Below, one piece after another: positions 19,807 through 25,911 of a DNA stretch of 64,000 nucleotides; the stretch's first letter is position 1, and every line of letters begins with the position of its first letter. Below the pieces are notes generated by a model. It was not told the origin of the DNA. It ran no database searches and was given only the letters and a program-made list of their open reading frames with translations. A program made the position numbers and the translations under genes. The stretch lies in contig JBGTNQ010000003.1 of NCBI GenBank assembly GCA_041742965.1, positions 12,483 to 76,482 on the forward strand, in the 5' to 3' direction. The stretch comes from Minisyncoccia bacterium (lineage in GTDB: Bacteria > Patescibacteriota > Minisyncoccia > Phycocordibacterales > Zambryskibacteraceae).

Positions 19807-19960
19807 CTATTAATTATACCATAAAATTTGTTAGTGGACGAGCACGAGACCTAGTCAGCTATAATTTAACTTCGCTGTATTTGCAGAAGGAACACCTATA
19901 ATAAAAGTATTAGTTTAAAAAAGTTCCAACTTCATATTTGTAAGGCTTCAAGATGACATC

Positions 19961-19987
19961 TTGACATTCATTAGAAGTTGTTATAAT
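19961..19987 (+). promoter_or_regulatory. Sigma70-like promoter for the dehydrogenase-YcaO operon
   Basis: TTGACA at 19961, a 15-nt spacer and TATAAT at 19982; an AGGAGG SD lies 5 nt before the ATG at 20052. Confidence 0.5.
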
Positions 19988-20051
19988 TTTCGATGTAGAT
20001 AACACCGCTGTTGGGTGCTTACAATTTCATGTTCTTTTACAGGAGGTTAAT

Positions 20052-22241
20052 ATGTACCACATCGAAATGCCGCTTGTCGCCCTCTTTGGCTATCCAAAGG
20101 ACTTGGATCAGCTCATTTTCTTGGGAAGACAAGAAGAAATTGTCCTCACTTTGGGTGAGGAAATCAGGAGCACGATGCTTCAGTTTTTGGCTTTCTGTAA
20201 TGGTTCTCGGACACTTGAAGAAATTCAAGTCCTCATGCCGGAGATAGATAAGCTGACTTTTGAAGCAATCGTTTCGACTTGTGCAGGAGAAGGCATAATC
20301 TGTGATAGTAGAGAAATTCTCTATTCTTTCCATGCTGATTCTGCAAATCCATTGAGATTTGTAAGTGGCCTCTCTTCGAGACAGGCTGCGGAATTAATCG
20401 AATCACGGGCAAAGATTGTGCAGACAAGCAATGAGATTAAGGTCTTTTTGCCTCAGTCACAATTTCTATCGCTACTTCAAAGTCGAAAAAGTGCAGAGGG
20501 GTTTGAAGATAAGCCAATTCCCGCAGAAATGCTTGGGGGCTTGCTTGCCTCAATGTATTCACTGGGCAATAAACGACCAGTTCCGTCTGCAGGGAAGTTG
20601 TATCCACTTGATCTCTATATTTTTGTAAAAAGTATAGAGCAATCAATTCCTCGTGGCCTCTATCGTTATGATCCAGAACGTTTGGCTTTGTACAATCTCG
20701 ACAAAGAGATTCTTGATGGTCAGCTCAATCGAGCACTCGATTCCTATCAAGCAGAGGATGTGAGTTTCGTCATCTTTATAGCTGCTGACTTGGAAAGGGT
20801 GGCGACAAAATACTCAAATCGAGGCTACCGTTTAGCACACATCGAAGTTGGGCATGTTGCACAAAACGCGTACCTGTTTTGTGCAGAAAATGGAATTGGA
20901 ATTCGAGAAATTTGCGGATTTCAAGACCAGCTTACTGCTCAATTGCTCGAACTTAAGTATCCACAGAAGGCTGTCCTTTCGGTTTTGTTTGTGGGTGCTG
21001 AGTCGGATGGAAAAATTCAGAACGATTTGCCTGGGATTGCAGACAGGTTAAGAGATAGCCTTGTTGGTCCCAATAAGCCGATCGAATGGATTCGTTCCCG
21101 ATCACTCGTGTACGATGGGGACACCTTTCCAAAAGTGGCATCTATTGCAAAATTTCGAAGTGTAAATCAGAAGGGTGAGTTACTTTCACACCCTGATGAT
21201 GTTTCCTTCGGTCTCTCAGATGTAAGTCATGAGGCGGCTATTAAGGCGATGGTTGAAGGTTTTGAACGTCATGTGTGTAGCCTTGTACGCATAGATGCGC
21301 ACGCAAAGGCTGTAGACTTGGACTCAGATTTTTTTGATCCTCGAATTGCTACTCCCTTTTTACCTGAACAGGTTGTCAAACTCGATCTCCACCACTTTGA
21401 TCCTAAGAAGGAATGGGATTGGGTAGTTGGAGAGAGACTGTCATCGCAAAAAAGGGTATATGTACCGGTCGATCATGTCTACTATCCTGTGAGCTCGCAT
21501 GCTGGGCGATCACTATGCTATCGTTCAAACTCGAGCGGAGTGGCAGCACACTTTGATTCAGAAGAAGCGAAATCTCGTGCGCTGTATGAGCTCGTCGAGA
21601 GAGACGCCATTCTTGTTACCTGGCACTCCCAACGAAGAGTCAAGGAAGTGCCTGCAGAGCGACTGAGTCAGTATGTGGTTGCGAGAACTCGGTATTGGCG
21701 AGAGAAGGGTTGGAAGCTCATGTTTCTTGATCTTACTCTCGACAGTGTTCCGGTTATACTTGCAGTCATTTACTCGCGCCACATGTATCCCGCGTTCGTT
21801 AGCGGGTCATCCGCGCATTCGTCACGCCTTGTAGCGGCTCAAAAAGCGCTAGATGAGGCTGAAACAATCCTTATTCTCGCTCTAGGGGAGGAAGAAAAAA
21901 AGAAGATAAATCTCAAGGATGTAATGTCACCAATGGATCATGGTCGTTTGTACTTTGATCATGAAAATTTGGCGTACATTGAGTGGCTTCTAAATCCGTC
22001 TGGTGTTTCTTTAGACCAAGAGATAGCGACTCCAGACTTGATTTCGATGTTTGACCCTGTGATGGTCAGCTTGACCCCAAAGGAGCACCCTTCCGGTATT
22101 CATGTATCTCGAATACTCAGTGAAAAGTTGCTTCCGATTAATTTTGGGTACGGCACAGAACACCATGGACACCAACGGTTTGAAGTGGTAGGATTGAGCC
22201 AGGTGCCAGAGAGTTTGTTCTTTCCACATTTCTTCGCGTGA
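20052..22241 (+). CDS. SagB-type (McbC-like) FMN dehydrogenase fused to a YcaO cyclodehydratase domain
   Basis: N-terminal half: RKSAEGF and VPSAGKLYPLDLYIFV...GLYRYDP, the SagB/McbC dehydrogenase hallmark. C-terminal half: a YcaO N-terminal motif FGLSDVSHEAAIKAMVEGFERH and a core motif YRSNSSGVAAHFDSEEAKSRALYELVERDAILVTWH. Confidence 0.8.
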   Translation: MYHIEMPLVALFGYPKDLDQLIFLGRQEEIVLTLGEEIRSTMLQFLAFCNGSRTLEEIQVLMPEIDKLTFEAIVSTCAGEGIICDSREILYSFHADSANPLRFVSGLSSRQAAELIESRAKIVQTSNEIKVFLPQSQFLSLLQSRKSAEGFEDKPIPAEMLGGLLASMYSLGNKRPVPSAGKLYPLDLYIFVKSIEQSIPRGLYRYDPERLALYNLDKEILDGQLNRALDSYQAEDVSFVIFIAADLERVATKYSNRGYRLAHIEVGHVAQNAYLFCAENGIGIREICGFQDQLTAQLLELKYPQKAVLSVLFVGAESDGKIQNDLPGIADRLRDSLVGPNKPIEWIRSRSLVYDGDTFPKVASIAKFRSVNQKGELLSHPDDVSFGLSDVSHEAAIKAMVEGFERHVCSLVRIDAHAKAVDLDSDFFDPRIATPFLPEQVVKLDLHHFDPKKEWDWVVGERLSSQKRVYVPVDHVYYPVSSHAGRSLCYRSNSSGVAAHFDSEEAKSRALYELVERDAILVTWHSQRRVKEVPAERLSQYVVARTRYWREKGWKLMFLDLTLDSVPVILAVIYSRHMYPAFVSGSSAHSSRLVAAQKALDEAETILILALGEEEKKKINLKDVMSPMDHGRLYFDHENLAYIEWLLNPSGVSLDQEIATPDLISMFDPVMVSLTPKEHPSGIHVSRILSEKLLPINFGYGTEHHGHQRFEVVGLSQVPESLFFPHFFA

Positions 22242-23822: not shown

Positions 23823-23976
23823 CACCCCCAACACGACATCCCGATGGCGTGTTGGGGGGATTTGGTTCAAAGGGGCTTCTTCTCTGTATTTGGCGTGCCG
23901 AAGGTGCTGATGAGCCTGAGCTGGTGAAGGCGAAGAAGTATTGGGGTGGGGTGTTTCTTTGAGATATAATTGTTTT

Positions 23977-24465
23977 ATGAACAAAAGACTACTTTCTTCT
24001 GACGACTGGCAAAAACTCCGTGACATTAGACTAGTGGCTTTAAAAACCGATCCACAAGCATTTGGCGGAAATTTTGATGAGGAGGTGGATAGACAAGAGC
24101 TCGAGTGGAGAAAAAGATTAGAAAATCCAGATAGGTTTTCTGTTGCGATAGAAGAAAACGATATTTTAGTTTCTTTGGCCGGCGCTTTAAAAGATAAAGA
24201 AGACGGCAAGTGGATGCTTGTCGCAGTATATACACGACCGGAGGCGCGGGGTAGGGGGTATTCTCAAGAGCTAACCCAATTTGTGATTGAAGAGGTCAAG
24301 AGAAGGGGTGTGAGTGAAATAAAACTCACGGTTAATGTTGATCAGAAAGATGCTGTCCATGTATATAAAAAAACAGGTTTCAAAATTATGGAAACCAAAA
24401 GGGGAGAGAAGATGGGCGATGGAAAGTTACACGACGAATATCTAATGGTTAAAAAGTATGGCTAA
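23977..24465 (+). CDS. GNAT family N-acetyltransferase
   Basis: Acetyl-CoA binding motif RGRGYSQEL...; ~160 aa. Confidence 0.7.
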   Translation: MNKRLLSSDDWQKLRDIRLVALKTDPQAFGGNFDEEVDRQELEWRKRLENPDRFSVAIEENDILVSLAGALKDKEDGKWMLVAVYTRPEARGRGYSQELTQFVIEEVKRRGVSEIKLTVNVDQKDAVHVYKKTGFKIMETKRGEKMGDGKLHDEYLMVKKYG

Positions 24466-24720
24466 CCAATTTGGCATTCCAAAAATAATAGATGAAAATT
24501 TAAGAAAATAAATATGAACACTTGGATTTTGGTACTCATAATCATAGTCTTGGCGTGGGTTCTGGTCTCAAAGAAGAGTCGGGACCAGCTTGCTCAAGGG
24601 GAGTGCGCCACCACCAACCTCTCAACTTTCTAATCTTCCAACTATTCTACTATTCGGGCGAATTAGCCGATGGTCTGTAATAAAAAAGTGGTCTGTACTA
24701 AATAAGTACAGACCACTTCG

Positions 24721-25911
24721 TCAAACTGAGCCATTTCCGTTCCTACGAACAAGATAAGCTCCAACGACCAGAACACTACCAGCAACAATCCATGCCACGG
24801 TGATTCCGAACAGGTGGGCAATCAAACCGCTGATCACTAATCCGATCGCACCACCGATATGGGGTGCCATTCCACAGAAAGAAGTGATGGAGGCTCGTTC
24901 GTGTGACGGGATCCTTTGGTGGAGGAAGCTGTCAACCATTGGCGCCCAGAATCCTCTACCTAATTCATGTAGAAAGAAGAGGATTATTGCCATTGGTAGC
25001 ACGGACGAGATTGATGCCAAGGTTACGGTCAAACCCACAAACACCATCGATCCAAGAATTATTTTCCGCTCCCTGCCTTTTGCATTAATTTGAGATGCAA
25101 TGAGAGCACCGAGTGCAATGAAGATCATAATGCCAGTAAATACGAAGCCAAGATGTTCATCTCGCACCCCTTGGTTTCTGAAGAACGGTTGCCAGTACAT
25201 GTTGAGTGCCTGAACAGAGTAGATCTGGATGAATGTGATGATGAGGATGAACCTCACGGCTTTGTCCTTAGATCCGTACTGAATGCTTGATACTGCCGTA
25301 TCTCGCATTGATTTCAATCCTTCTTTCCATGAGAAAGTTTTTCTAATGAAGTATTCCTCACTCATGATGAAGTATGCGAGTAAAGCTACCAGTGCCATGC
25401 CGGCACTACCGACAAACCATGGCAGGGCCGAGTCTATGACAGCCAGGTATGCTCCGGCGATTGCTCCAATTCCTCCACCAATTTTGTCATAGAGGCTTGC
25501 TCTGCCGAAAATCTTGTTGAAAGCACCGTTATACCCATGGTGCTTCAGACTGTCGACAAGCCAAGCTTGGAATGCCCCAGTCCTGAATGTTATACCGATG
25601 GCGGCGATAATCTCAGCGCATATAAACCCTGTAAGTGTGTGTGAACTACCATAGACAAACATGGATAAAGAAAGTAGGACAGCTGACACCACGTATGATG
25701 ACTTTCTGCCGAATATATCTGCGAATGCTCCTGTAGGAATCTCGCAGATGAACAGGGTGGTGAAGAAAACAGCGTTGACCAAGTTTACTTCGAACAGATT
25801 CAATCCATTCTTCATCAGAAATGTCACATAAATTGCACTGATGATCTGCATTCCTCCAGCCGAAGCTAGAAAGGAGAGCAGGTAATACTGTCTGACAGTT
25901 TTTGTGTCCAT
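24721..25911 (-). CDS. MFS transporter
   Basis: Twelve predicted TM helices and a GRKSSY-type MFS motif. Confidence 0.8.
   Translation of the reverse strand: MDTKTVRQYYLLSFLASAGGMQIISAIYVTFLMKNGLNLFEVNLVNAVFFTTLFICEIPTGAFADIFGRKSSYVVSAVLLSLSMFVYGSSHTLTGFICAEIIAAIGITFRTGAFQAWLVDSLKHHGYNGAFNKIFGRASLYDKIGGGIGAIAGAYLAVIDSALPWFVGSAGMALVALLAYFIMSEEYFIRKTFSWKEGLKSMRDTAVSSIQYGSKDKAVRFILIITFIQIYSVQALNMYWQPFFRNQGVRDEHLGFVFTGIMIFIALGALIASQINAKGRERKIILGSMVFVGLTVTLASISSVLPMAIILFFLHELGRGFWAPMVDSFLHQRIPSHERASITSFCGMAPHIGGAIGLVISGLIAHLFGITVAWIVAGSVLVVGAYLVRRNGNGSV

Follow-up and report, generated by a model that had tools for sequence, protein, structure and literature searches.

Can the whole machinery that installs azole rings in a peptide be carried by one polypeptide, and if so, how would such an enzyme recognise its substrate? 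This question is raised by a 64,000-nucleotide stretch of contig JBGTNQ010000003.1 from a Minisyncoccia bacterium (assembly GCA_041742965.1; the whole stretch is referred to below as the window), in which a single open reading frame (ORF) of 729 codons joins a SagB-type dehydrogenase to a YcaO domain and is followed by a gene for a small peptide rich in Cys, Ser and Gly. An initial annotation had described the locus as a compact, possibly partner-independent azole pathway for a peptide that is made by the ribosome and modified after translation (RiPP). In the analysis reported here we conclude that the locus is likely to be a minimal system for a linear azol(in)e-containing peptide (LAP) or thiazole/oxazole-modified microcin (TOMM), with the complete synthetase in one protein in the order RiPP recognition element (RRE), SagB, YcaO. 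The features of the locus are collected in Table 1.

Domains of the fusion enzyme

The proposed SagB::YcaO fusion was borne out when both halves of the protein were compared with profile models. The N-terminal half scored 112.5 bits against the NCBIfam SagB model TIGR03605, above the cut-off of 78.4, and matched Pfam Nitroreductase (PF00881; residues 143-315, 59 bits), and the C-terminal half matched Pfam YcaO (residues 393-635, 135 bits), the YcaO fold itself probably starting near residue 340. The motifs quoted in the initial annotation (RKSAEGF, VPSAGKLYPLDLY, EAAIKAMVEGFERH and SNSSGVAAH...YELVERDA) were all found in the ORF. In an alignment of 30 fusion homologues (25-62% identity), the invariant or nearly invariant residues of the SagB part were R145, S147 and F151 (RxSxxxF), P178-S-A-G181 and L183-Y-P185 (PSAGxLYP), K253-Y254 and the NRGYR motif; those of the YcaO part were K398, E402, E405 and R406 (KAxxExxER), S494-x-G-x-A-A-H (SxGxAAH) and E513-L-x-E-R-D-A (ExxERDA). 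Two of the properties by which LAP/TOMM systems are recognised are thus present in the fusion: the ATP/Mg-binding residues of the YcaO domain are intact, and the FMN dehydrogenase has its Lys-Tyr motif.

A further such property, the leader-recognition element, was found at the N-terminus of the same protein. The AlphaFold2 model of the fusion (pLDDT 90.1, pTM 0.87) places three strands followed by three helices at residues 13-79. When a profile of residues 1-110 was compared with PDB sequences, the best match was the RRE of LynD (residues 39-84), with MusD, TruD and PbtF further down the same list, and the N-termini of individual family members matched winged-helix families of Pfam. Pfam itself gave no match to the isolated N-terminus, to the linker or to the 36-residue peptide, and the RRE is visible only through the profile search against PDB sequences, the scans of individual members and the structure model. 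Taken together, the predicted fold and the match to LynD identify residues ~7-85 as an RRE. With this module built in, the enzyme would be self-contained but not recognition-free. The compactness that had been proposed for the pathway stands, together with its precursor gene, and the absence of an RRE does not.

The partner protein of canonical systems was searched for as well. No E1-like (C) or Ocin-ThiF (F) domain was found in the fusion protein, no ThiF/E1-like gene among the ORFs scanned in the window (those in the surroundings of the locus and, among ORFs with 250 or more residues, all except two), and none near any of ~20 related loci, as judged by Pfam or gene calls. The initial annotation, which had noted no E1-like, Ocin-ThiF or RRE partner, was correct as to the first two in the protein and in the window ORFs scanned, and missed the third.

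Table 1. Positions of the features of the locus in the window
Feature	Positions	Strand	Basis
Promoter-like site: TTGACA (19961-66), 15-nt spacer, extended -10 TGtTATAAT (19979-87)	19961..19987	+	Read by eye; function putative
Shine-Dalgarno AGGAGG, 5 nt before fusion ATG	20041..20046	+	Sequence
RRE-SagB-YcaO fusion, 729 aa, predicted single-polypeptide azole synthetase	20052..22241	+	ORF, domain matches
N-terminal RRE, aa ~7-85, three strands then three helices	20070..20306	+	
SagB-type FMN dehydrogenase domain, aa ~137-317	20460..21002	+	TIGR03605, PF00881, conserved residues
YcaO cyclodehydratase domain, aa ~388-729	21213..22241	+	
Shine-Dalgarno AGGAGG of precursor gene, 5 nt before GTG	22300..22305	+	Sequence
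Precursor gene, 36 aa, GTG start, encoding MQKPLITVLRRPYAEDKTTGRNSANGCNSSCGRCSG	22311..22421	+	Sequence, homologous peptides
Precursor parts: leader MQKPLITVLRRPY..., leader-only stretch MQKPLITVLRRPYAED, core ...NGCNSSCGRCSG			
Intrinsic terminator, hairpin and T-run	22443..22491	+	dG -22.4 kcal/mol, z -4.6, 0/200 shuffles as stable
HExxH protein, 196 aa, minimal gluzincin fold; candidate leader peptidase, alternatively immunity or resident protein	22505..23095	+	
Class I S-adenosylmethionine (SAM) methyltransferase, 193 aa; weak link to the system, perhaps as an optional tailoring enzyme	23241..23822	+	Pfam Methyltransf_11/25/31
GNAT acetyltransferase, adjacent, not conserved with the system	23941..24465	+	Pfam Acetyltransf_1
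MFS transporter, convergent (tail-to-tail) with GNAT gene, not conserved with the system	24721..25911	-	Pfam MFS_1

A fusion family with short precursor peptides

To call a SagB::YcaO fusion without a C domain unusual, as had been done, is to see it as more singular than it is. A word-indexed search returned 68 fusion homologues, nearly all of 700-740 residues and with both domains. When 1.84 billion cluster representatives were searched exhaustively with a profile, the best 150 matches all had E <= 1e-139 and most were aligned essentially end to end; the fusion architecture is therefore common to at least 150 clusters (at 50% identity), and from its sequence relatives the fusion appears to be a compact and widely distributed version of an antibiotic-peptide pathway that is itself well known. 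Full-length fusions were seen in Patescibacteria (loci L001, L002, L007 and L012), in Saccharibacteria (L003, L004, L006, L008 and L018, of which L008 is the cultivated oral Nanosyncoccus nanoralicus) and in a metagenome-assembled genome labelled 'Tenericutes' (L005). More distant true fusions, at ~26% identity, occur in Proteobacteria (L009, L010, L011, L014 and L029); these RRE-SagB-YcaO proteins, from Reyranella, Variovorax, Cupriavidus and others, are 725-766 residues long. Matches that resembled fusions, from cyanobacteria, actinobacteria and further groups (L015, L020, L041, L046 and more), were discarded, as each proved to be a pair of separate YcaO and SagB genes lying side by side.

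The small downstream ORF proposed as the precursor was supported by its relatives. Homologous small ORFs adjoin 16 other fusion genes in Patescibacteria and Saccharibacteria, and the window ORF is therefore more than a chance reading frame; the claim would have been undermined had related loci never carried a Cys/Ser-rich small ORF, and 17 such peptides, that of the window included, were found beside fusions. All 17 align on an invariant Tyr at position 12-20, which closes the leader as [P/S/K/Q]-Y; after it come a spacer of 7-20 residues and a core with at least two Cys that is 50-90% Gly/Ser/Cys. Their lengths are 32-62 residues, with one of 105, and the closest relatives of the window peptide read ...ITVTRRPY...SANGCHSSCGHSGSG. 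Between pairs of the loci L081, L082, L086 and L091, in all of which GGAGG lies upstream of the precursor, the 12-codon core differs by 3-7 synonymous and 0 non-synonymous changes, a pattern that points to purifying selection on the core. By these sequence comparisons the 36-residue ORF is a genuine precursor adjacent to its enzyme, with the N-terminal leader and the Cys/Ser/Thr-rich core expected of a LAP/TOMM substrate. No NCBIfam precursor model matches it, and no curated precursor family fits; in L003 and L012 the scan for the precursor motif gave no clean match, and by eye only single-Cys candidates were seen.

The precursors of other lineages vary on this theme. Those of oral TM7 bacteria (L004 5131-5448, L006 2545-2778 and L008 4425-4691) lie upstream of the fusion gene and have 7-15 Cys in Gly/Cys/Ser runs (GCGSGCGGGCGG...), a composition that recalls microcin B17. 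In L002 one fusion gene is followed by two distinct precursor genes (10237-10335 and 11166-11417) that have the PY leader motif in common. Peptides after proteobacterial fusions have a related leader, F-[SK]-W-[ST]-[VI]; leader peptides of the form F-S-W-[ST]-V follow the fusions of L009 and L011, and also that of L023, in which the fusion reading frame is interrupted. A different Gly/Ser-rich peptide lies upstream of the fusion in L029.

From these domain identities, the conservation of their motifs and the linkage of the genes, each catalytic step of a pathway can be predicted. The RRE would bind the short leader of the 36-residue precursor, most likely by strand addition to the beta-strand motif I-T-V-L-R-R-P-Y, as in LynD, McbB and PbtF. 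The YcaO domain, given its conserved ATP/Mg residues, would use ATP to activate the amide preceding C27, C31 and C34 (and possibly Ser) to form thiazoline or oxazoline rings, which SagB, with FMN and its Lys-Tyr motif, would oxidise to azoles, probably, in keeping with other enzymes of the nitroreductase fold, as a homodimer. Of the E1-like 'C' domain found in canonical synthetases, the recognition module (the RRE) alone is kept. The downstream HExxH gluzincin would probably then cut off the leader, a step for which support is moderate. By analogy with microcin B17-like peptides, the product could be an antibacterial or an interaction factor of an epibiotic bacterium of the Candidate Phyla Radiation (CPR).

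Several observations weigh against this assignment. The fusion scores 135.1 bits against TIGR03604 (SagD, the thiazole/oxazole-forming maturase), below the curated cut-off of 219.25, and covers positions 2-276 of the 377 in that model. The C-terminal PxPxP tail that azoline-forming YcaOs insert into the active site has a degenerate form here: the window protein ends in PHFFA, and across the family the tail is conserved as PHFF[A/P/S], with P725 nearly invariant, H726 invariant and the second and third Pro mostly lost; the proteobacterial fusions keep a PHPF[P/A/G/N] tail and the stand-alone YcaOs of the fetched loci PHPF[P/A/G]. Moreover, MusD and archaeal thioamidating YcaOs are among the nearest structural matches. 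One possible explanation is that the YcaO domain performs other chemistry (thioamidation, amidine formation or a MusD-like ATP-dependent peptide cleavage) and that SagB has a non-canonical role. We consider this very improbable, as the covalently attached SagB partner, a domain whose established role is to oxidise azolines, passes the curated cut-off of its own model and keeps the Lys-Tyr motif, no TfuA gene lies nearby, and in all precursors the Cys residues are flanked by Gly/Ser, which is typical of thiazole-forming substrates.

A second alternative retains azole formation but holds that the fusion is not self-sufficient, and that an E1-like, Ocin-ThiF-like or other protein encoded elsewhere in the genome is needed for useful activity. 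In canonical systems the E1-like domain both clamps the leader and strongly potentiates the YcaO (PMC4603692), azoline-forming YcaOs there need a C or F partner, cyclodehydration being potentiated by the C protein (PMC4603692, PMC7136475); in curacozole biosynthesis, CzlD without CzlBC formed no oxazoline on its substrate CzlA (PMC11575548). The visible sequence, in addition, is 64 kb of a genome. CPR genomes, however, are small and reduced, the fusion brings its own RRE, and no candidate partner gene was seen either at the related loci or among the window ORFs scanned, all of which makes dependence on a distant partner unlikely. The one-polypeptide LAP/TOMM synthetase remains our preferred reading.

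The HExxH protein, other neighbours and genomic setting

All of the flanking genes named in the initial annotation (HExxH, methyltransferase, GNAT and MFS) are present, and it was further proposed there that a protease, tailoring enzymes and an exporter belong to the pathway. For the protease this is plausible. The 196-residue protein has the HExxH motif, downstream Glu ligand and zincin fold of a gluzincin, and its gene is linked to the fusion in eight loci: beside that of the window, homologues adjoin fusion and precursor in L001, L081, L082, L083, L085, L086 and L091. The adjacency is kept in distant genomes and in three gene orders: fusion-precursor-HExxH, fusion-HExxH-precursor (L001) and precursor-HExxH-fusion (L083). 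At the Taylorbacteria loci a DUF2268 Zn protease (HEFHH) occupies the same position; homology between the two families was rejected (hhalign probability 0.7%, E 0.086), and the proteins are treated as analogous only. A metagenome scan with the HExxH alignment found three loci, and there is no curated model for this small gluzincin family.

Other findings speak against a peptidase role. The HExxH gene occurs without fusion or precursor in two genomes, directly after a HisKA gene in L084 (6001-6594) and directly after an EamA-like gene in L092 (2267-2854), and the same EamA...HisKA context precedes it in L081 (5279-10026), where fusion and precursor are inserted before the HExxH gene. This looks like an indel in which the biosynthetic module was gained or lost next to a gene that is resident or serves as an orphan immunity gene. 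In addition, the strong terminator lies between the precursor and HExxH genes of the window, the HExxH proteins are more conserved than the fusions (70% versus 62% in L081 and 66% versus 48% in L082), and the Saccharibacteria loci have no adjacent peptidase. The fusion-precursor module may accordingly have been inserted next to a gene whose product is resident in this lineage or is a factor for self-immunity or toxin degradation; the leader would then stay in place or be cut by a housekeeping protease. This is a live alternative that we regard as possible, if not favoured, in view of the linkage in distant genomes and of the unrelated Zn protease found at the same position in Taylorbacteria. 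With linkage to the fusion on one side and solo copies and a terminator on the other, a role as leader peptidase is plausible but not secure.

The case for tailoring and export is weak. The conservation of neighbours was assessed by tblastn against 87 loci, of which L087 is the window's own sequence. The methyltransferase has a single homologue, at the same position in L081 (33% identity), and the GNAT, the MFS transporter, the upstream 182-residue protein, NADAR and DoxX have none outside L087; all six were rejected as conserved parts of the cluster. Methylation, acetylation and MFS export are thus not supported as parts of the system, and the lack of any conserved exporter or immunity gene counts against the reading as a LAP/TOMM system. 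The GNAT adjacent to the trifolitoxin cluster, TfxH, acetylates the processed toxin and so confers self-immunity (bioRxiv 10.64898/2025.12.02.691738); since the window GNAT is not conserved at related loci, a similar immunity is only a lead here. The MFS gene had been described as divergent, and lies on the minus strand, convergent with the GNAT gene. A second MFS gene of similar size, also on the minus strand (34197-35375), likewise matches Pfam MFS_1, which supports a general transporter rather than a dedicated exporter. Between the convergent GNAT and MFS genes is a 15-bp hairpin with T/A runs on both sides (24685-24719), likely a bidirectional terminator.

The Shine-Dalgarno sequence and terminator reported earlier for the operon are present, as is a promoter-like site. 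The latter was read by eye only; the scan for consensus promoters does not list it because its spacer is 15 nt and the scan accepts only 16-18 nt. Just upstream of the divergent 182-residue gene that precedes the cluster are a tRNA-Gln(CTG) gene (18762-18833) and an ORF-poor region of ~1 kb (18300-19250), in which Rfam at its gathering threshold found nothing besides the tRNA.

The window is chromosomal, as it encodes LigA, GatA, PrfB, FtsE/X, GroEL, ribonucleotide reductase, RNase J, glyceraldehyde-3-phosphate dehydrogenase and transketolase. The nearest named relatives of its GroEL are from Paceibacterota, Parcubacteria and Taylorbacteria (73-75% identity), and the fusion's own named homologues belong to Minisyncoccia and Patescibacteria; the genome was therefore rightly called CPR-like. 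A 919-residue protein encoded at 45508-48267 has a weak TraD-like match. In Taylorbacteria (L088/L089, 9301-12264) the module of fusion, precursor and DUF2268 protease adjoins genes resembling those of type IV secretion or conjugation (PrgI, a TraC-like protein and a TraG P-loop protein), which hints at mobility.

Known systems and significance of the fusion

Every pairwise combination of the domains has a precedent: RRE-E1-like-YcaO in LynD, RRE-oxidase in ThcOx and TfxB/TfxC, and E1-like-dehydrogenase in CzlBC. In microcin B17 biosynthesis, the three proteins McbB, McbC and McbD form a B4C2D2 octamer with the RRE on the E1-like McbB (PMC6395948), whereas here there is one polypeptide with no E1-like domain; compared with McbBCD and other LAP BCD complexes, the leader is also far shorter, with its conserved Tyr at position 12-20. 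LynD, TruD and PatD have the order RRE, E1-like, YcaO, the middle of LynD being an E1-like remnant and the oxidase being separate or in PatG; in the fusion the middle is the SagB dehydrogenase. The PatA/PatG proteases of the cyanobactin systems are absent here, and macrocyclisation is not expected. ThcOx (PMC6395948) and TfxB/TfxC (bioRxiv 10.64898/2025.12.02.691738) are RRE-fused azoline oxidases or dehydrogenases whose YcaO is separate rather than covalently attached, and TfxB/TfxC yield a Gln-derived fluorophore, a chemistry different from that proposed here. CzlBC of curacozole biosynthesis offers a parallel, as it shows that the module for leader binding can reside on a dehydrogenase and that a YcaO and a dehydrogenase can depend on each other for activity (PMC11575548); it differs in that CzlBC retains an E1-like domain and that the YcaO, CzlD, is bare and separate.

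CPR organisms are believed to live as symbionts or parasites on other bacteria, and few secondary-metabolite clusters have been reported from them (PMC7298704, PMC8939145). The statement that RiPP clusters are rarely reported in Patescibacteria is nevertheless out of date, as a 2020 survey by Sharrar et al. described 110 LAP clusters from 93 CPR genomes; in most of these the nitroreductase has a gene of its own (PMC7298704). Those clusters share the phylogenetic setting and the predicted product class of the present locus; in the example described there, YcaO, nitroreductase and peptidase are each encoded by a gene of their own and the precursor has 84 residues, and the RRE-SagB-YcaO fusion, the PY leader motif and precursors of 32-62 residues (one of 105) do not appear in that paper (PMC7298704). 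Our literature search found no paper characterising an RRE-SagB-YcaO polypeptide or precursors with a PY leader. With the pairwise precedents and the CPR clusters of 2020, the fusion is therefore less surprising than it was first judged to be; it is still a well-defined and testable minimal system. As neither the precursor family nor the small gluzincin has a curated model, both are missed by annotation pipelines.

A conserved family of peptide natural products is marked by these loci in Patescibacteria and in the cultivated human oral TM7 bacterium Nanosyncoccus nanoralicus (L008). If the fusion works alone, the E1-like domain would be dispensable once the RRE is tethered to a dehydrogenase-YcaO pair, and RiPP engineers would gain an azole installer that is encoded by one gene and works with a very short leader. 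We tentatively suggest, as a proposal that may well not hold in full, that RRE-SagB-YcaO proteins are fully self-sufficient azole synthetases needing a leader of only ~13 residues (h-x-h-x-x-P-Y), and that the thiazole peptides they define form a microcin-B17-like family, found widely among CPR bacteria (human oral Saccharibacteria included), which these ultra-small epibionts use against hosts or competitors. If true, the system would be the most compact tool known for installing azoles as well as a candidate molecular effector of the interactions between CPR bacteria and their hosts.

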